This document shows positions 1 to 56,876 of a stretch of DNA of 64,000 nucleotides, in pieces. The position numbers and the translations under genes are program-made. The stretch lies in NCBI GenBank assembly GCA_965112155.1, contig OZ218102.1; one strand, written 5' to 3'. This DNA comes from Podarcis liolepis. Lineage: Eukaryota. The notes beneath the pieces were generated by a model. The model saw nothing but the letters and a program-made list of their open reading frames with translations. It was not told the DNA's origin and made no database searches. Each line of letters starts with the position of its first letter. The first letter of the stretch is position 1.

Positions 1-1295
1 CAACCGCTCTCTCAATCACCTTACCCAGGAACGGAAGATTCGAAACCGGGCGGTAATTGGATAGATCTAAGGGATCTAATGATGTTTTCTTTAAGAGCGG
101 GAGCACCACTGCCTCCTTCAGTTCCCCTGGAAATATCCCGGTGCCAAGGGACAAATTGATGATATCCCCGGGGGGGGGGGGCGCACCTCGTCTGGACACG
201 CTCTAATCAGCCAAGACGGGCACGGGTCAAGAGGACAGGTGGTGGGCTTTCCAGCTCGGAGGAGTCTGTCCACATCGGCTGGGGATATCCGGTCAAAGTG
301 GTCCAATACTGGACCCGAGGACAGTCGAGGGGCCTCCAGTTCCTTTATTGTATCCAAATTGGCAGGGAGGTCATGTCGGAGCAACAGGACCTTCTCCGCA
401 AAAAAGCTCGCAAATGCCTCACAGCTGTGTGTCAGATTGTTATTTAAATTTGGCTGTCCTTCAAGGGACGTTAAAGACCTAATTATACTAAATATTTGCG
501 CCGGGCAAGAGCTAGCGGATGCAATGGAGGCCGAGAAGTAAGACTTCTTAGCGGCCTTCACTGCCATCTCATAGGTTTTCATAAAAACCCTATAAGATGT
601 TCTTGAGGCTCCATCATGGGCACCCCGCCATACTCTCTCTAGCCGTTTGAGGTCCCGCTTCATTTTCCGAAGCTCCTCGGTAAACCAGGGAGCCCGGTTT
701 CTGCGGGGTCGCAGAGGGTGCTTAGGTGCGATCTCATCGATGGCTGCCAGGAGCTGGATATTCCAGCCCTCAACAAGCTCAGTCAATGAGTCGCCAGAGG
801 GAGCAAGGTCCCACAAGGCTTGACGGAATCTATCAGGGTCCATCAGCCTCTGCGGGCGAGCCCAAATCAGCTCGCCACCTAAGCAGGGTGGGGGTGGAAA
901 GTCAATCCTGGCTTTCAGAGCATAGTGATCAGACCATGGCACCTTCATCGAAGGAGACATGATCACATCTATACTGGCGCCAAAGATCAAATCCAGCGTG
1001 TGGCCTGCTTGATGTGTGGGGCCCGAAACAAACTGGGAGAGCCCTAATGTCACCATGGAAGACACCAGGTTCAGAGCCTGTAAGGAGGGAGTGGCATCAG
1101 CATGGATGTTGAAGTCCCCCAATACCAATAGGTTAGGGAACTCCAAGGCTCAGCCGGCCACCGCCTCCAGCAGGCCTGACAGGGTGGCTGCTGGTGCGCT
1201 AGGTGGCCGGTACACCAGCCAGACAGCCAAGCTCACCTCAGAGCCCCACACTAGGCCAACACATTCAATGCCCGGGATCAATGGCAATGGTAGAG
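1..1295 (-). mobile_element. L2-clade LINE, 5'-truncated ORF2 (APE endonuclease and start of RT), running off the window start
   Basis: ORF 118-1146 has APE motifs LVLGDFNIH, PTHQAGHTLDLIF and SDH, plus the L2-type TTCPLDPCPSWL. After a frameshift at the G run 170-181 it continues [34 protein letters not shown]. The upstream frame reads LVYRPP, followed by an in-frame stop. Confidence 0.9.
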
Positions 1296-11988: not shown

Positions 11989-12230
11989 CAGTGGTACCTC
12001 TGGTTAAGAACTTAATTCGTTCCAGAGGTCCGTTCTCAACCTGAAACTGTTCTTCACCTGAGGTACCACTTTAGCTAATGGGGCCTCCCACTGCCACCGC
12101 ACCACCAGCACATGATTTCTGTTCTCATCCTGAGGTAAAGTTCTTAACCTGAGGTACTACTTCCGGGTTAGCAGAGTCTGTAACCTGAAGCGTTTGTAAC
12201 CCAAAGCATTTGTAAATCGAGGTACCACTG
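11989..12230. mobile_element. Tc1/mariner (Tigger/pogo-like) MITE
   Basis: TIR CAGTGGTACCTC...GAGGTACCACTG with TA on both sides. Inserted near the end of an older MITE (about 11820-12238). Confidence 0.92.
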
Positions 12231-12539
12231 TATGGTGTTGTTGTGACCCTTCTGTCTTTTAACTATGTCAGTGGAGGCTTCTCCCTCTCCCTCTCCCTCC
12301 AAAAGGCATTGCAACCATTTCAGGCAGCAGCTTGGATGTTCTCAGCAGTCTGTGTGGCTGGGCCAGGATGCTCCTGGAAACAACACTATGCCATAATTCA
12401 GCCTTTTCCCAAAAGGATTCACATGGGGGGGGGGGGGAGATGGCTGCCTCAGTTAGCCACCTTGAACTGAAAGCAGCAAAATCACCTCCCGATGAGACAG
12501 CAAGGTATTTATTTTATTTTTTTGGTAAAAGAAAAATGT

Positions 12540-13255
12540 GTTGGGCCTTCTGCCAGTATCAGAAATGCATTTCTCCAAGAGGAAACATTTCTGAAAGGAA
12601 ATATGTTCCATGCGTCCCAAAGCTATCAAAGAACAAGGTCACATCATGCCCACTGACTGCATGAAACATATTTGATGCGTTTGCTCTCCTAGCATTCCAG
12701 GTAGTTGTAATTTCATGTGCTTTGTTGTAACAGCTGTGTTTGTCCATACCTCAGTCCCTGGAATGTGCTGCAAGCCAGACACAATGATCACATCCACATC
12801 TGTGCCTGCTGTCCCGACAACCATCTTTTCCTGCCTGCTATGTGCTGCATCTGATACTCAACATCAGACATGTGTCAGCTTCCTCATGCAAACGTGGCTC
12901 AATGCAACCTTTGCTTTCTCTGCCTGGGAAGCATAGTACTTGGACCTCAGAGATACTGTACAGTTGTTAGCCTTCTGTTTTAATCGAAGTAACATGTTCC
13001 ACCAGCAGCTGAAACAGATCAGTTTTATTTTCATTGACCTGAAGAAAGTGGGGCCAGTTACTTGGCATCTTTGATGCAGGACAAACTCTCCATCTCAGAC
13101 CTTTGCTTCTTTTCTTTCTGGCTGCTTTAAAGCTACCTTTGATACAGCTATCCCACATATGTCTAGCCTGTCTTCTAGGTTTGTAAAATACTTTGGAGAA
13201 AAAACTGTTAATGTTCAAAAGGTTCCTGCTAGGAAGGCACCATCCAGATATCTCC
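12540..13255 (-). pseudogene. Degenerate XPG/FEN1-type PIN nuclease domain, probably a fossil Academ (AcademX) DNA-transposon fragment
   Basis: Joining frames across frameshifts gives LDGA ... RLDI-WD..KGSFKAARKKRSKGLRWRV.PASKMPSNWPHFLQVNENKTDLFQLL ... PRLHEEADT.LML ... VVGTAGTDVDVI ... AHEI ... MFHAVSGHD ... WDAWNIFP ... AFLILAEGP. This is the ordered acidic-motif series of XPG-like domains. Confidence 0.72.
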
Positions 13256-13438
13256 ATGTTAACTACAAATACACATTTGTCTCTCTCATGCTCCCCTACC
13301 CTTACTGGGAAAATAAAATGTATAAGTGTCCCAAGTTTCATATGAGTCCAAAGTGCTTAATTCTAGTTCCACTCAAAATAGAGATTGCTGCACCAGCCTT
13401 GCAGCCAGACCTCTCCACATCTGCTTCTTAAGCAAATA

Positions 13439-13664
13439 CAGTGGTACCTCTGGTTATGAACTTAATTCATTCCAGAGGACCATTCTTAACCTGAAACCGT
13501 TCTTAACCTGAGGCACCACTTTAGTTAATGGGGCCTCCCACTGCCACCGTGCTGCCGGCACACAATTTCTGTTCTCATCCTGAGGTAAAGTTCTTAACCC
13601 GAGGTACTACTTCCGGGTTAGGGGAGTCTGTAACCCGAAGTGTTTGTAACCCGAGGTACCACTG
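13439..13664. mobile_element. Tc1/mariner MITE, same family and orientation as 11989-12230
   Basis: Same TIR and TA TSD, homologous interior. Confidence 0.92.
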
Positions 13665-34308: not shown

Positions 34309-35291
34309 TTGTGTTTTTTTCAAAAAAATTTATTGGTTTTCACAAAATTAAAAAACACACTAACAAATAAACAGACAAACATAAATCATAACCTTATTAA
34401 ACCTAATCTTCTTGTTAAATTACTTCCTTGTATCCTCCTAGTTGAATTTCAATGAATATCATTTTAACAGTTTTCCAAATCAAAGTTCTTAAAATCTTAA
34501 CTTAATCACTTAACATCAGTCTTTCTTCCCAATTTAGCATTAAATATAGTAATTCTTCGCATTACTTATTTAATTCCTAGGCCTAGCTGGTAATTGCAAG
34601 CTTTTTCCAATTAATTTAACTTGATATATTTAGCTAAACAGTCATTAAATTTATTCCATTCTTCCTGATACTCCTCCTCATTCTGGTCACGGACTCTGCC
34701 GGTCAGGTTGGCTAGCTCCGAAAAGTCCATCATCTTCATCTGCCATTCTTCCACAGTTGGTAGTTCTTGCGTTTTCCACTTCTTAGCTAGTAATATTTGA
34801 GCAGCAGTTGTGGCATACAAAAATAATTTAACATCTTTCTTGGGCAATTCCAAGCCTGTTATTCCAAGAAGAAAGGCCTCTGGTTTCTTTATAAATGTAT
34901 ATTTCAACATTTTTTTCAATTCGTTATAAATCTTTTCCCAGAAGTCTTTCACCTTGGGGCAGGTCCACCACATGTGATAAAAAGTTCCTTCTTTTTCTTT
35001 ACATTCCCAACATAAGTTGTCACAGTTATGATAAATCTTTGCTAATTTAACAGGGGTCAAGTACCATCTATACATCATTTTCATTATATTCTCTTTTAAC
35101 ATTGTATATGCAGTGAACTTAACCCCTTTCTTCCACAATCTTTCCCAATCCTCAAACATTATCTTATGTCCTACATCTCTTGCCCAATCTATCATTACTG
35201 ATTTAACTTGTTCATCCTTTGTATGCCACTCCAACAGTAACTTATACATTTCAGACAGATTTTTAACTTTAGAATCCAACAACTCCGTCTC
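34309..35291 (-). mobile_element. L1 LINE 3' fragment (ORF2 C-terminus and 3' UTR)
   Basis: ORF 34611-35324 has WYLTPVKL...CWECKEKEGTFYHMWWTC (L1 C-terminal Cys/His knuckle). AATAAA and A tail near 34310-34335. Candidate TSD ctgtggttt at 34300-34308 and 35292-35300. Confidence 0.9.
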
Positions 35292-37419
35292 CTGTGGTTT
35301 GGGGTAAATCGCTTTGTGGGCCAATCTTGGCCTGTAGGCAAGAGGTTCTGCAGCCCTGGCCTATACTGGATGGAAGCAAGCTCCCTACGGTTTCAAAGAG
35401 AGAACAGCCCTACCTGAAGATGCCAGCGACATGAGTGCTCTTTGTATATGGATTGAGCCACCTCAGCATGATTGGACCTCACACTGCAGGGGTGAATCTG
35501 TAAATGATCTATGGAATTGGCCCTGTCCATGTTGTTACCCAGTTGAAATGTGGATTAGTTTCACACCACCATGACGTACCGTAATCATGACTTTTCTAAC
35601 TTTACAGCAGTGTGAATGGATTCAGTATTGATTATGTATTTTGACTGGCTTCTCAGCATTAATCTACGTCCATGTGAATCCAGTCAAGGAACAGTGCTTC
35701 TGTAGAAGCACTGAAAAACACATGCTTTAAAGACATTCCTTATTTTATCATAAAAAGGAAGCCATATATGTTATCCCCATAGGATTAAAAAAAAACCCCT
35801 GCTTGTTCTGTTTACAGAAGCCGAGATATTTTGCCAATTTCCATTTGCTTACATGTTTGTCTTTATGAAGCTCATAAAATAACAATGGGAATTGAATTCA
35901 ATACCAAATAAAAAATAAAAAAATAAGCCCAGTATTCATTTCTACTTGAATGACAGTGAGTGGATTTTTTAGCTCTTGCCTGGAGCATGCCTTTTGCAAA
36001 TGCAAAACAAAGCAGTTTCCTAATAAGGTTTCCTCACTGAAGCTGAACTTCCTTTACCCAAACGTGGGGGCTGCGGTTCAGACACATCCATCAATGGAAA
36101 TGTGCTCTCCTAAGCAATGACCAAACAGCACACTGGAGCAAGTACCTTAAAAGAGAAGACAGCTTTTTGTTTTGTTGTGTAGTTGCTCCTAAAGTGGCAT
36201 CACACTTGGTAAGAATTATGCATAGTGATAAAATGTATTTTCGCTGATCAGACAAATCCCAGAGTCCACACCTTATTAAAAACAGATTGTTGCTTATGAA
36301 CTCATAGAAAAGGAGGGGTAGATGAATATAAAAAACACCCCCACAGCAACAGTATTCATTGAGTCAGAGATTTGAATATAAATAGCCACTTACAGGGAAT
36401 CAGGGTGTGAAACTACAAAGCAGAAATGTTTGTATGCTGAGGATTTTTTTTTTTATTTCTGGGAACAGTATTTCTTGCTCTCTACTGGAAACAAAGGTTA
36501 CCAACTCTCCCTTCCCAGGAGAGTGATATCAAAAGCTCCACTGAAAGGAGAAGTTTATTCACACTTAACTTCCCCACTGCTACCGTTCACTCAGCTGTTG
36601 TGGGATGCAGTATTCCACCTCTGGTGCTGATTTGCCACAAAGATGGCATGACTGACAAGCACAATCTATCCAGTGTTTCTCAATGACCAACAGAAAAAGA
36701 AAAAACCCCACACATTTTGGCCTGCTGATACAAATTCACACTAAGACAAGGATCCTAGCTGCAATTGGGAGACAGAAACTATAGCTGGAAAGAGGTTTTT
36801 TTTACCCCTCTGCCAAAGAATCCACATATATGCTTTATATTGTATTTTCTAACTATGTTCTGAAACAGATGAAATAATTTCCACAAGCCAACTTAGATGT
36901 GCCAGGCCAACACATCTAAAGCTTCCATTGCCTTTTTTGCACCTGCATCACATGATAACACAGCAAAGTTGAATTCAGCAAAATAAAGATTTCCTCTATT
37001 GGTTCTAGCTAATAAGTTCTCAGACAGCTCAAATGTTTTAAGTATCTTGTTATTTTGTGGGATAAACATTAACATAATCCTTTAAGTAGTGTATAAGATG
37101 CTGTAATGAAGTATTTCACTAAAGTGCTCCGTTGTTGCGTATACTGAACCTATACCTGGCGATGATACTGAATGGCAGAGGACAATTTATAACCTACATT
37201 TTAAATCATGTCTTGAATTTTTGAGTTCATTCCCCGATTTATATTCAGTATGTTGTGCACAGATAATCCATTGTTATTAATGGATTTTATTATCCCGATG
37301 CAGCTTGCAAACAGAATGAAATCCCTGGCTTAGAACTCCAGGTAGAATTTCAAGGGTTCTATATTTGTCTTTTGAAAGAAGTCTGAAATACAAGAAATAG
37401 CTGAATTGATCTAAGAATA

Positions 37420-51303: not shown

Positions 51304-53915
51304 GAGAAGGTTGATTATAATTGCAGCTAGGGGTAGAATTCAGTTTGCATTTAAAGGCAAAGTTCCCTACTACACACTTTCCAAAATGGTACAAGAACAG
51401 AAACACAAGCATCCTTCAAAATTCACACTTCTACACATTTTTGAAATGCAGTTCCCCAGCCAAGTAATGAGTACAAAAAATGCACATTTGGAGAAATATG
51501 AACTAAAATGTTCATTAATTTTCATGAGAATTTATTACTTATTAATTTACATACCACTTAAAACCCTTTCTTTACACACCTGTGTACCCCCCCCCCACAT
51601 AATTTGTGGACATCCAAAGAAACTGAATGTTGGAAGATTCAGGACAGATAAAACAAAGTACTTCTTTATGCAGTGCATAAACGACGGAACTTGCTCCGAT
51701 AGGAGAGTGTGATGCTCACCTTGGATGGCTTTAAAAGAGGAATAGAAAAATGGACGGAGGAGAGGGCTACTGGCCCTGATGACTACACTCTGCTTCCACA
51801 GTTGAGGCAGCAATGCTTCTGAATACTAGTTGCTGGAAGCCACAGTTGCAGAGAGTGCTCTTGTGCTTCAATCCTGCTTGATGGTTTCCCATAGGTTGGC
51901 CACTGTGAGAACAGGATGCTAGACTAAATAGCCCACTGGAATGAACCAGCAGGCTCTTCTTATGGTTAACTAAATTTATGTGGGATACATAATCAATTTT
52001 GAATATAAAGCATCTCTTCTGGAGTGCAAAATGTCAAGTAAGCTCACCCATCGGTCCACCTTTGCAAACAACCAAGAGGCTTCACCTTCACTGTCTGGTG
52101 CCTTGTATTCTTTGACTGCTTAAAAGTTACTTAGAGAACAGTTGAGGGCATATGCATTTAATCCACTTAAAAGGTCTGCAATTGAAATTAGTGGGGATGG
52201 GGAAAATGAACATTTCCCATCCTTTCTGCTACATGGTCCGGATGTAAATAAAGTTATATAATCCTCCCCGAGTCCCAGGAACAGGAACACATCCAATTAG
52301 ATAAAATACATTAAAAAGAAGTACAACCATCAGTTCTGGCACAGACTAGGTCTCTGCACAACAGAGGTAAAAGACTGTATAGATTAGGGAGTGAATCTTT
52401 GCCCACTGATTCTACAATCATTTAAAACTAATGGACTCAGCATGACCTTTGCTGTAGAATATAATATGCAATAAAATTATGGGGCCTGTGTTGGCGTCTG
52501 GAAATAGAAATTTGATAGATAGGCACTATTGTGAAAATATGAGAAGGAAGAACTATGATACATAATTATAATATGACTGGGTCCCCAAATATAATTATAG
52601 CAGGAAACCCATCTCACGCACCCCAAATATATACATGTATGTAGGTGTGCTTTGAAAATGTAGCTTACAATTTAGGATAGAGGATGAAATAGGGACTAAG
52701 TATTATGAAGCTTCAGCTATAAATACTCCCTTCCATCTTAAAGGGAAAATGTTCGGCTTATAAAGGAAAAGTGGCATACCAAGGTCTGGATGAATAACAC
52801 AGGGAAACATTTGGTCAAATTTTTCTCTAGAAAATAATACCTCTTTAATGATGTAATACGACATCATAATGCTCTTTAGTACCTCTTTAATGATGTAATG
52901 CGGAGTCATAATGCTATTTGCTAGTAATATATGGGAAGGTGAAACTTCTCTTTTCTTGTACCCATTTCTGCCATGTTTCTGTGTGACCTTTCAGAGTTGC
53001 AAGCTCTAAAGGATCCAGAGTAGTAGATGTGATACAAGGATGGCCTGCTACTCTGAAGTGTGAATATAAATTCCTGGTGTACTGAAGATCCCAGGTACTT
53101 GCTGTATTTGAATTCAAATTTGGAGCTCTATGCAAATATGACTGAATGGACAATGAAATGTTTTTACATTCTTATAGCAGCTAGTGCAGCAGGTAGAAGG
53201 GTGTGTGTGAAAGGGTTAATCAAATGAACACTTTGGAGTATTCACTCACTTAATCATTCCAAAAGCAGATTATCTCTTCACTTGCTCTAACCTGGTCATC
53301 TCCTAACACTGTATTTGTATTGTTGTGTTTGTTGGTGCCAGACTCACTTAAACTTCCGAGTCCAGTAAGTGTTATAATTTAATTAAGGCTTGGGGTGTTG
53401 AAACTGGGTGCTAGACCCATGTGTATTAAGTTGTGTGCTAGACACATCTAATCCCCTGGAATATACAAGTGTTAAAAGCTAGGCTAAGATTCCTGGGTTA
53501 AGGTAATAGCTTGGGGAATGGGCCATTAAGACAATCAAAGGAACTCAGTGTGAGATGCCAAAAGAGTGGGGCCCCTTTCCCTCAGCAGATAGAGCCAGAA
53601 CTTAGAGTAATATGACCTAGAAGTAAAGCAGGAAGTAGGAGGGACAGAGCAACATTTTGAGAGTACATTTGATGTCTGTTTGGATCCAAGACTGCAGCTA
53701 TGGGAGAAGCAATACCCTCTTTGGGTGACTGTGCTTTGAACTTCTCAATCGTAGGCTCAGGTTGCAGATATGTATAAATAAACCATATATCACAAAGACA
53801 CTACAGTCTCCCCTATGCATCATTCCCAAAAGAAAGCACAGAAGCACATCTGGAACCCTTGGAATCTCACATACTCAGAGATTGTAGTGGCATTCAACAG
53901 TATAATTGAATATAT

Positions 53916-54431
53916 TATTTATAATGAGTTAAAAAAAATGTTTAGATATACTTTCCCCCCAAAAATGGAAGCATTCCTGTTGGGGATGACAGGAGCAGAA
54001 ATATTAAAAGTTGACCAGAAATTGTTTATGTATGCCACTATGGCAGCTAGAATTTTATTAGCCCCAAAGTGGAAGCAACAAGAATTACCAATGGTAGGCA
54101 AATGGCAGAAAAGATGATGGACTATGTGGAATTGGCTTCTTTGCCAATTCGGGGAGAATCCGAAACCAGAGTGACCAAGTTTCCCAGGGAGAATGGAATA
54201 AATTTGTTCAATACATAGACAATCATTGTAAACATATAAAGGCACTAGCTGGACTGCGATAAAGCTTGCAATGTTTAAAAGAAGAAACTTTCTACTTGTG
54301 CTTTAAGTTTTAAATAACTTAAAATAAATGTATAATTTAGATGGTCCAAATGAAATGGAGGGAAGTCAAAAGCTCGGCAGAGCTAAAATTTGTAAAAGGT
54401 GATATGATTTTATAATATTGTTAAAAATGGA
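53916..54431 (+). mobile_element. L1 3' fragment whose tail region is a (TA)n tract hosting the Penelope palindrome
   Basis: Encodes IYNELKKMFRYTFPPKMEAFLLG...LFMYATMAARILLAPKWK, homologous to 34611-35324. 20-bp TSD aacagtataatYgaatatat at 53896-53915 and 56937-56956. Confidence 0.85.
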
Positions 54432-54453
54432 ATATATATATATATATATATAT
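54432..54453. repeat. (TA)n flanking the left arm
   Basis: Directly visible. Confidence 0.95.
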
Positions 54454-55650
54454 ATGCAGGTTTTGGTGTCCTCGGGTGTCTTCCCGTGTAAAAGTTGGGG
54501 TGTCTAGGCGACGTTTCGACGAGGTCTCACTCGTCATCTTCAGGCTGGTGCTTTCGGCTTCTTGTTACTGGAACAGAGCGGGATCTCAGTGTTTGAGTTC
54601 CTATAAATACTGTAGAGGGGTGTGGTGTATTGCCTCAAAAGTTCTGGGCAGAGGGGAAGTTCCCAGGCTAGTGTTCTTTTCTTCTTTTGTTCCTTAATTA
54701 CTTGAGGGATATCTTGAGTGATTTCTTGAGTGATATTCTGAGTACCACTTAGGTGGGTCATTAGGTGTGGATTAGTTGCTAAAGCCTTCGTGTCTTGACC
54801 TCTTGAATTTGTGAAGAGTTTTTCTGGGAAGATGGCTGTACTGCACTTAGTTGTGCTTTGGCTTGGCTTCGTGTATAGGGGCGAGCTGTGGTTTTGTGCC
54901 CTGTGCCAGCCAGATCTGTGTAGGGATTGCAGGGGGGTGCAGCATCCGGAGTTGCCACTATGGTTTGGTTACTGGATGGTGTCTGTAATTTATCTGTGGA
55001 GAGGGTCTGGGTTTGGGTCTGGTGTGGTTGATTGGTGGTGGCGTTCTGTGTGCCTCTGGATCTGGTGTCGGTTTTTGTGGGGAGGGCTAATTTCCAGATG
55101 TCTGGCAGGCGGGACGTGTCGTCACGCTTGTTCATGTTGTGAGGGTGTTTCTCTATCTCGATGGCTTCCATGATTATTCTCTTGTGGTGATGTTCCATGT
55201 TAAAGAGCAATTTGGAATCTGCAAAATTAATTTCGTGTCCTGTTTCTTTCATGTGTTGGAAAAGAGAGGAAGATTTTTCTTCTTTTTTGACGGCATTCTT
55301 GTGTTCTGCGATACGTGCATTTATTCGTCTGTTTGTTTGTCCAATGTACGTGGCTGGGCAGACTTTGCAGGGTATTTCATAGACCCCTTGGTTTTCCAAC
55401 TGGATTTTATCTTTGGGGTTTCTGAGGATATTGGCTATTTTTTGGTTGGTGCAAAAGGCTGTTTTGATATTGTGTTTATGGAGGATTTTGCTAATTTTAT
55501 CTGTAGTGCCCTTGATATAAGGAAGGAGGGCCATGCCATTGTTTTCTTCCGTGTCTTGGTTTTTGGGGGGTGTTTCTTTTTGGATTAGCTTCTTAACCCT
55601 GTTTTGCTGGTATCCATTGGCGATTAACACATTTGAGAGATTCTGTAACT
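54454..55650 (-). mobile_element. Penelope-like element, left (inverted) arm: GIY-YIG endonuclease region plus pLTR
   Basis: ORF 54779-55696 contains LPYIKGTTDKI, GVYEIPC..CPATYIGQTNR.I..RIAEH and EAIEI...NMNKRD. Confidence 0.93.
54508..54545 (-). ncRNA. Mirror copy of the hammerhead core, sense to CTNNA3 pre-mRNA
   Basis: Exact reverse complement of 56755-56792. Confidence 0.7.
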
Positions 55651-55679
55651 CAATGGATACCAATGGATACCAATGGATA

Positions 55680-56876
55680 CCAATGGATACCAGCAAAACA
55701 GGGTTAAGAAGCTAATCCAAAAAGAAACACCCCCCAAAAACCAAGACACGGAAGAAAACAATGGCATGGCCCTCCTTCCTTATATCAAGGGCACTACAGA
55801 TAAAATTAGCAAAATCCTCCATAAACACAATATCAAAACAGCCTTTTGCACCAACCAAAAAATAGCCAATATCCTCAGAAACCCCAAAGATAAAATCCAG
55901 TTGGAAAACCAAGGGGTCTATGAAATACCCTGCAAAGTCTGCCCAGCCACGTACATTGGACAAACAAACAGACGAATAAATGCACGTATCGCAGAACACA
56001 AGAATGCCGTCAAAAAAGAAGAAAAATCTTCCTCTCTTTTCCAACACATGAAAGAAACAGGACACGAAATTAATTTTGCAGATTCCAAATTGCTCTTTAA
56101 CATGGAACATCACCACAAGAGAATAATCATGGAAGCCATCGAGATAGAGAAACACCCTCACAACATGAACAAGCGTGACGACACGTCCCGCCTGCCAGAC
56201 ATCTGGAAATTAGCCCTCCCCACAAAAACCGACACCAGATCCAGAGGCACACAGAACGCCACCACCAATCAACCACACCAGACCCAAACCCAGACCCTCT
56301 CCACAGATAAATTACAGACACCATCCAGTAACCAAACCATAGTGGCAACTCCGGATGCTGCACCCCCCTGCAATCCCTACACAGATCTGGCTGGCACAGG
56401 GCACAAAACCACAGCTCGCCCCTATACACGAAGCCAAGCCAAAGCACAACTAAGTGCAGTACAGCCATCTTCCCAGAAAAACTCTTCACAAATTCAAGAG
56501 GTCAAGACACGAAGGCTTTAGCAACTAATCCACACCTAATGACCCACCTAAGTGGTACTCAGAATATCACTCAAGAAATCACTCAAGATATCCCTCAAGT
56601 AATTAAGGAACAAAAGAAGAAAAGAACACTAGCCTGGGAACTTCCCCTCTGCCCAGAACTTTTGAGGCAATACACCACACCCCTCTACAGTATTTATAGG
56701 AACTCAAACACTGAGATCCCGCTCTGTTCCAGTAACAAGAAGCCGAAAGCACCAGCCTGAAGATGACGAGTGAGACCTCGTCGAAACGTCGCCTAGACAC
56801 CCCAACTTTTACACGGGAAGACACCCGAGGACACCAAAACCTGCATTCCTATACCCGTGAAAATCTACGAAAACAA
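55680..56876 (+). mobile_element. Penelope-like element, right arm with complete 3' end
   Basis: ORF 55673-56521 is identical in translation to the left arm from NGYQQ onward. The arm extends about 30 nt further (tcctatacccgtgaaaatctacgaaaacaa) before (TA)n. Confidence 0.93.
56755..56792 (+). ncRNA. Hammerhead ribozyme core in the Penelope pLTR
   Basis: CUGAAGA(56757-63)-U-GACGAG(UGAGAC)CUCGUC-GAAA-CG-UC. Stem II has 6 bp, stem III is a palindromic ACGU, and stem I shows only about 2 bp. Confidence 0.7.

Follow-up and report, generated by a model that had tools for sequence, protein, structure and literature searches.

A decayed, probably AcademX-type nuclease fragment in the lizard Podarcis liolepis and its relatives in the same genome

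Introduction

Academ is a superfamily of DNA transposons, one lineage of which, AcademX, was reportedly set out by Kapitonov and Jurka in 2010 and by Kojima in 2020. AcademX elements have one large open reading frame (ORF) in which a DDE-type core is followed by an XPG/FEN-type nuclease and a Cys tail, the latter being a C-terminal Cys-rich (Cys8) finger. As set out in the relevant sections of one study, AcademX elements encode a nuclease and generate target-site duplications (TSDs) of 3-4 bp, AcademH elements encode a helicase and generate TSDs of 9-10 bp, and a link between the type of enzyme and the length of the TSD is suggested (PMC10045372).

An Academ fossil of amniote age is described on human chromosome 4 near NDST4, and also in turtle, in the part of a report that concerns it (Frith, 2022; PMC9004415), and Academ occurs at a very low level in a caecilian according to PMC8498967. 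No report of Academ in squamates was found in the literature searched; it may well be listed in de novo repeat annotations. In the squamate repeat papers searched, the word Academ is missing from the main text of PMC4350176, the supplements of PMC11303007 and 12 of the 13 supplements of PMC6050309.

Here a stretch of 64,000 nucleotides of lizard DNA, termed the window, is analyzed together with the 1.57-Gb genome from which it comes, whose SINE and MITE repeats look squamate. With a probability of about 0.9, the window holds a broken nuclease-coding piece of the gene of an AcademX cut-and-paste transposon whose copies multiplied in a single old burst and have since decayed, free of selection. 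As in AcademX, the homologs of this fragment have one large ORF encoding a nuclease and a Cys tail, with a putative DDE-type core, and a sister family (family B) has terminal inverted repeats (TIRs) and a 3-bp TSD. It differs from AcademX as described in its reptile host, in that every copy seen is either broken or non-coding, and in that the window copy is nuclease-only and lacks ends. The human fossil likewise derives from an Academ protein and lies in the genome of an amniote, but according to the sections on it (PMC9004415) it is a single conserved relic of 152 bp, whereas here there are multi-copy families with TIRs and TSDs. The Academ name used here is a putative assignment based on protein architecture and TSD rather than on a match to a named Academ sequence. 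The novelty is modest and lies in the squamate host and the several separate families, the superfamily being known and an amniote fossil already published.

Results and Discussion

The nuclease fragment in the window

The original prediction had read nine motifs from the minus strand, and all of them were located there in the order claimed, spread over three frames between 13247 and 12596 (Table 1). They lie in a decayed coding fragment whose DNA likeness to sister copies extends to ~12529. When aligned in a frameshift-aware manner to a profile built from 49 homologs of full length, the fragment scored 143.6 bits, compared with 15.5-20.6 bits for 12 random stretches of the window. Among intact proteins the closest is P0213 (1518 aa), which is identical to positions 13208-12542 at 113 of 218 codons (52%), and the alignment to it reveals frameshifts near 13156, 12852, 12739 and 12620 and a stop at 12967. 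The Asp equivalent to that of LDGA is present in all 81 full-length homologs, as is the first Asp of the DTD motif, the residue that is Gly in the window copy (GTDV). The five breaks together with this lost acidic residue rule out a protein function, and the window copy cannot encode a working enzyme.

The window copy is a passive, inert remnant. TIRs, TSD, transposase, Cys tail and termini are all absent from it, no inverted ends surround the fragment, and no other pieces of the element were detected elsewhere in the 64-kb window by tblastn and a profile scan. No obvious host exon was seen among the window ORFs of at least 110 aa, which by appearance are mostly retrotransposon pieces or chance frames.

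Table 1. Features of the fragment and its immediate neighbors (window coordinates; minus-strand motifs start at the higher number)
Feature	Position	Strand	Remark
Decayed coding fragment, probably AcademX, FEN/XPG-type nuclease domain only	12530..13260	-	~residues 1120-1371 of 1518-aa protein
LDGA, first acidic motif of nuclease	13236..13247	-	matched by eye, upstream of scored alignment
RLDI	starts at 13169	-	
KGLR	starts at 13104	-	
PSNW	starts at 13065	-	
ENKTDLF	starts at 13032	-	
HEEADT, central acidic motif	12871..12888	-	E-E-x-D kept
GTDV, remnant of DTD motif	12795..12806	-	profile alignment to homologs
FHAVSGHD, remnant of FHAxTGCD motif	12643..12666	-	last Asp kept
WDAWN	starts at 12619	-	
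Unrelated high-copy MITE, CAGTGGTACCTC ends, own TA duplication	11989..12230		downstream of fossil
Second copy of same MITE family, own TA duplication	13439..13664		upstream of fossil

Homologs and their domain architecture

A search of 1.84 billion representative proteins with the first ORF piece (P0001) gave 403 matches at E<=0.001 (best 3.8e-11), and four of the ten that were looked up carried an organism name, which was mussel or sea anemone. When one homolog, P0140, was used to search for longer proteins, 459 matches were obtained, and among the 120 listed there were 49 of at least 1400 aa, many of them single ORFs on contigs of 5-7 kb. Named sources of the longer homologs are coral, hagfish, Ciona and the annelid Capitella, to which a second search added hake, limpet and moth, and their database names are 'hypothetical' or 'Tesmin/TSO1-like CXC'. 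The range of Academ extends beyond the invertebrates and fish with which the original prediction mainly associated AcademX, an amniote-age fossil in human being listed by Frith (2022; PMC9004415).

The full-length homologs are single ORFs of ~1520 aa with acidic DDE-type positions, a FEN-fold nuclease and a C-terminal Cys cluster. Three acidic positions, in motifs DNIDH, DQP and HEQ, are kept in 81, 80 and 81 of the 81 full-length proteins, respectively, and are taken here to be the DDE triad; the eight acidic positions of the nuclease are kept in all 81, and the C-terminal tail has six invariant Cys among 121 aligned homologs. Pfam contained no family for four ORF pieces from the window, nothing relevant and no XPG/PIN for the first 16 homolog matches, and for 14 long homologs DUF6589 only (in 5 of 14), with no XPG/PIN, DDE or helicase. 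A word-index search among longer proteins with a 108-aa read-through gave no match, and the ESM Atlas gave no usable match.

The parent element would have encoded one protein of ~1520 aa consisting of an N-terminal region, a DDE-type core, a 5' nuclease of the FEN/EXO1/XPG fold and a Cys-rich tail, its gene being enclosed by long inverted repeats ending TAG...CTA. Judging from the family, the DDE core would excise and join the TIR-bounded DNA ends, and the fused 5' nuclease may trim or process the strand-transfer junctions, leaving the 3-bp duplication. The window fragment is of no help in defining the role of the fused nuclease, for which intact elements are better suited.

Nuclease fold and comparison with host nucleases

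The fold of the nuclease was read from an AlphaFold model of P0140 (pLDDT 90.6), and the window fossil was aligned to that domain by sequence. Compared using VIA, the model matched EXO1 (Z 14.1, rmsd 3.6, 247 aligned), XRN1 (Z 13.7) and XPG (Z 11.2), and in a wide VIA search the top 17 rows were all FEN-like 5' nucleases, the next row being at 7.3. Foldseek ranked XRN1/2, bacterial FEN and EXO1 first. A 935-aa model, which does not include the region of the first catalytic Asp, also matched nucleases only in Foldseek, with no RNase H match. According to the P0140 model, the term 'XPG-like' is apt only loosely, in the sense of a FEN-like fold, as XPG is predicted to be no closer than EXO1 or XRN1. 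The XPG/PIN-like domain that had been proposed from the DNA is in this way borne out as a FEN-type fold in the homolog model, but it has no special tie to XPG and no Pfam XPG/PIN match.

The FEN-like 5' nucleases (EXO1, XRN1/2, FEN1, XPG/Rad2, GEN1 and T5 FEN) and the homolog model have the same fold and the same layout of acidic active-site residues, as might be expected if the fragment had come from a host 5' nuclease gene (FEN1, XPG, EXO1, GEN1 or XRN) by processing or decay, but only the fold is common to them, with identities of 8-16% in structural alignments, and in the homologs the nuclease is fused to a putative transposase. When a family profile of 121 homologs was run against PDB sequences, no host nuclease was matched at E<=10 (there was one chance match, E 0.49), and because there is no real PDB sequence match a host retrocopy is excluded. 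The window copy is also 52% identical to the putative transposase-fusion protein P0213, and it has dispersed sister copies with a common 3' non-coding tail. The original prediction had already dismissed a FEN1, XPG or EXO1 retrocopy, and the probability of such an origin is here considered to be close to nil.

Copies in the genome and family A

The original prediction had left the copies to be counted; DNA and protein searches, in which the best candidates were scored, revealed coding fragments at no fewer than 38 distinct loci. These loci jointly cover profile positions ~136-1526, and identities at the three codon positions sort the copies into several families. Family A consists of the window copy and ~15 loci, with membership defined by DNA likeness or by a best match to P0213/P0218. 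At one locus on C4 the transposase-E region and the nuclease occur in order, and the transposase-E region is also seen in a family-A-like locus on C4.

Copies of family A are 65-72% alike in the longer blastn matches. Identity at codon positions 1/2/3 is 0.60/0.70/0.64 between the window copy and the C2 copy and 0.59/0.64/0.60 between the window copy and the C15 copy, and in other families position 3 is saturated (0.24-0.37). The equal decay of the three positions in family A fits copies of one master that were dead on insertion. From a leave-one-out family A majority, the window copy is separated by a K2P distance of 0.28 and ten other pieces by 0.21-0.48, values that are inflated by alignment noise (one misaligned piece gave 0.88, and pieces of less than 25 codons were excluded). 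Family A is likely old and likely decayed in a star-like manner from one master, with no selection.

The copies of family A have in common a 3' non-coding tail of ~600 bp, with ...CCACTA at two of four aligned ends, and a decayed Cys tail is present in those on C15, C8, C1 and C2. No 5' end or TIR and no TSD was found for this family, and a search for the 5' TIR gave one further 3'-type match only. A repeat just upstream of the C15 copy was considered as a TIR and rejected, as by appearance it is the 3' end of a LINE. When searched against the genome, the N-terminal 404 residues of P0157 gave no match, and P0213 gave two N-terminal pieces. The presence on C4 and C3 of transposase pieces resembling family A weakens the proposal that this is a deletion family with the nuclease alone.

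Termini and target-site duplications of family B

Copies of family B are 79-87% alike, and the median K2P distance of their TIRs is 0.116 (29 arms, with five duplicate or mis-cut rows excluded). The coding copies contain transposase pieces (on C20, C21, C12 and C8) and nuclease-side pieces (on C8 and C21), and they have inverted repeats of more than 200 bp with ends TAG...CTA. The 19-base terminus of this family has 114 exact matches in the genome, compared with none for the reversed control. The first 30 loci represent 29 distinct elements, with a recognizable second end within 1.5 kb in seven and none in 22. An exact 3-bp TSD is present in six of the seven two-ended copies, and the mean identity at this length is 0.95 versus 0.44 when shuffled, with none of 2000 shuffles as high, while lengths of 2 and 4-10 bp are at chance level only. 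The seven two-ended copies are non-coding MITEs that are tied to the coding fossils by their shared TIR, and squamate AcademX is better described from them than from the window copy. A first look gave 909 candidate MITEs of this family, 136-1322 bp in length (L132-L191, on many contigs).

The 3-bp TSD of family B falls within the 3-4 bp given for AcademX in the part of PMC10045372 that deals with it, and family B is therefore in agreement with AcademX. Together with the architecture of the ~1520-aa homologs, the TIRs and TSDs of this sister family uphold the Academ/AcademX reading of the original prediction, and its expectation of TIRs and a 3-4-bp TSD holds for family B in both respects but for the window copy in neither, and family A yielded no 5' end or TSD. 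AcademH belongs to the same superfamily but differs in that here a nuclease is present, the 14 long homologs have no Pfam helicase match, and TSDs of 9 or 10 bp are at chance.

Two further kinds of copy were noted. A third family (L052, G000:C7:34.88 Mb, and L063, G000:C6:18.29 Mb) has inverted repeats that enclose only the C-terminus of the nuclease and the Cys tail. A very divergent Academ-like copy with the longest branch (L047, G000:C4:1.168-1.170 Mb) has no stop in 162 and one stop in 207 aligned codons, with no frameshift called, and may represent a distant lineage or a copy that was once under constraint.

Phylogeny, age and mode of entry

A tree was built from nine of the lizard fossils together with a selection of 30 intact homologs using profile positions 1010-1526, the rows being gappy and long-branched. 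Family A is a clade (100/96) that is nested in a clade with the intact proteins P0213 and P0218 (100/100). The C7 copy (L052) is placed next to a hake protein (99/99), within a larger clade (100/99) to which limpet and hagfish proteins belong as well, and the family B copy is placed elsewhere, without starred support. A single clade for the nine lizard fossils is rejected (p-AU 0.0012, a result tempered by the gappy, long-branched rows), from which it follows that several lineages would have entered separately, and, judged from these sequences, repeated horizontal entry of AcademX into this lineage is likely. No donor was identified; a metagenome scan gave 19 relatives, mostly partial, and did not point to a donor. 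The ancient or horizontally acquired lineage of the original prediction survives in that the family of the window is old, but there are several lineages of at least two ages and not one.

The measured ratio of the ages of families A and B is ~2.5. If neutral change is assumed to run at 1.5-2.5 per thousand sites per million years, the ages would come to roughly 110-190 million years for family A and 45-80 million years for family B, where only the ratio is measured. The fuller scenario, held tentatively and at somewhat below even odds, is that AcademX invaded the squamate lineage several times by horizontal transfer from aquatic animals, giving the old family A and a ~2.5 times younger family B, from which hundreds of MITEs with TIRs and 3-bp TSDs remain. 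Horizontal transfer would be unnecessary if Academ had been inherited vertically from early amniotes and had been active in squamates as several lineages, and this is consistent with the amniote-age fossil in human and turtle, with the argument in PMC9004415 that patchy distributions of transposable elements often turn out to be vertical once fossils are found, and with the failure to identify a donor. Vertical inheritance is nevertheless considered the less likely course. It is at odds with the rejection of a single clade in the nine-row analysis, with the fossil that lies beside the hake protein in a clade with limpet and hagfish, with the star-like decay of family A from one master, and with a protein cluster (P0166, 90% identity) that combines fish (Muraenolepis) and crab (Chionoecetes) proteins and is itself a candidate for a recent horizontal transfer. 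In addition, the per-copy transfer rate of Academ is the highest among those quoted in the section of PMC12400950 that gives such rates.

The host range of AcademX is widened by these families to squamates, with at least two datable bursts, and termini and a TSD are now given for a family that may go without a class in repeat libraries. They also offer a case in which to test whether a superfamily that is transferred at a high rate per copy has a horizontal or a vertical origin. If repeated transfer were true, the squamate mobilome would contain an unrecorded, repeatedly acquired superfamily, and insertions of family A or B would be usable as dated markers of lizard phylogeny.

The locus in relatives and its neighbors

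In data from four other organism labels (B-E; two studies), contigs span the locus at single-copy depth. The fossil differs by ~0.9-2.5% in these four related organisms and its flanks by ~1.5-2.6%, and the most distant relative has three indels in the fossil, none of which is a multiple of three. From these comparisons there appears to be no clear sign of constraint on the window copy. A former transposon fragment that is now retained for a regulatory role or as a non-coding transcript would also occupy the same locus in organisms B-E, and in three of the four runs the fossil does have slightly fewer differences than the flanks (~0.9-1.2% versus 1.5-1.6%), but in the most distant run the two are similar (~2.5% versus ~2.6%), the indels there are those described above, and the K2P distance of the window copy to the family majority does not fall outside the values of its sister copies. 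In three runs that are labeled RNA by guesswork only, short contigs cover 12707-13167 at a depth of 2-4, and such low-depth contigs are no evidence either way. An exapted protein is ruled out by the five breaks and the lost acidic residue, and domestication in any form is regarded as very improbable, the unselected decay of an AcademX fragment being the preferred reading.

The two flanking MITEs with CAGTGGTACCTC ends (Table 1) are presumably of the Tc1/mariner type. Movement of the fossil between them as a composite element was considered and rejected because each has its own TA duplication. Elsewhere in the window there are long open frames at 118-1149 (-), 34611-35360 (-) and 53782-54117 (+), the first two of which have no Pfam match; all three are assumed to be pieces of LINE ORF2, of the L2/CR1 and L1/Tx1 types. 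At 54447-56853 a GIY-YIG-bearing, Penelope-like 3' segment forms a perfect inverted repeat of 1174 bp (100%, 59-bp spacer) with (AT)n flanks, which has the look of either an insertion of very recent date or a fold-back of the assembly.
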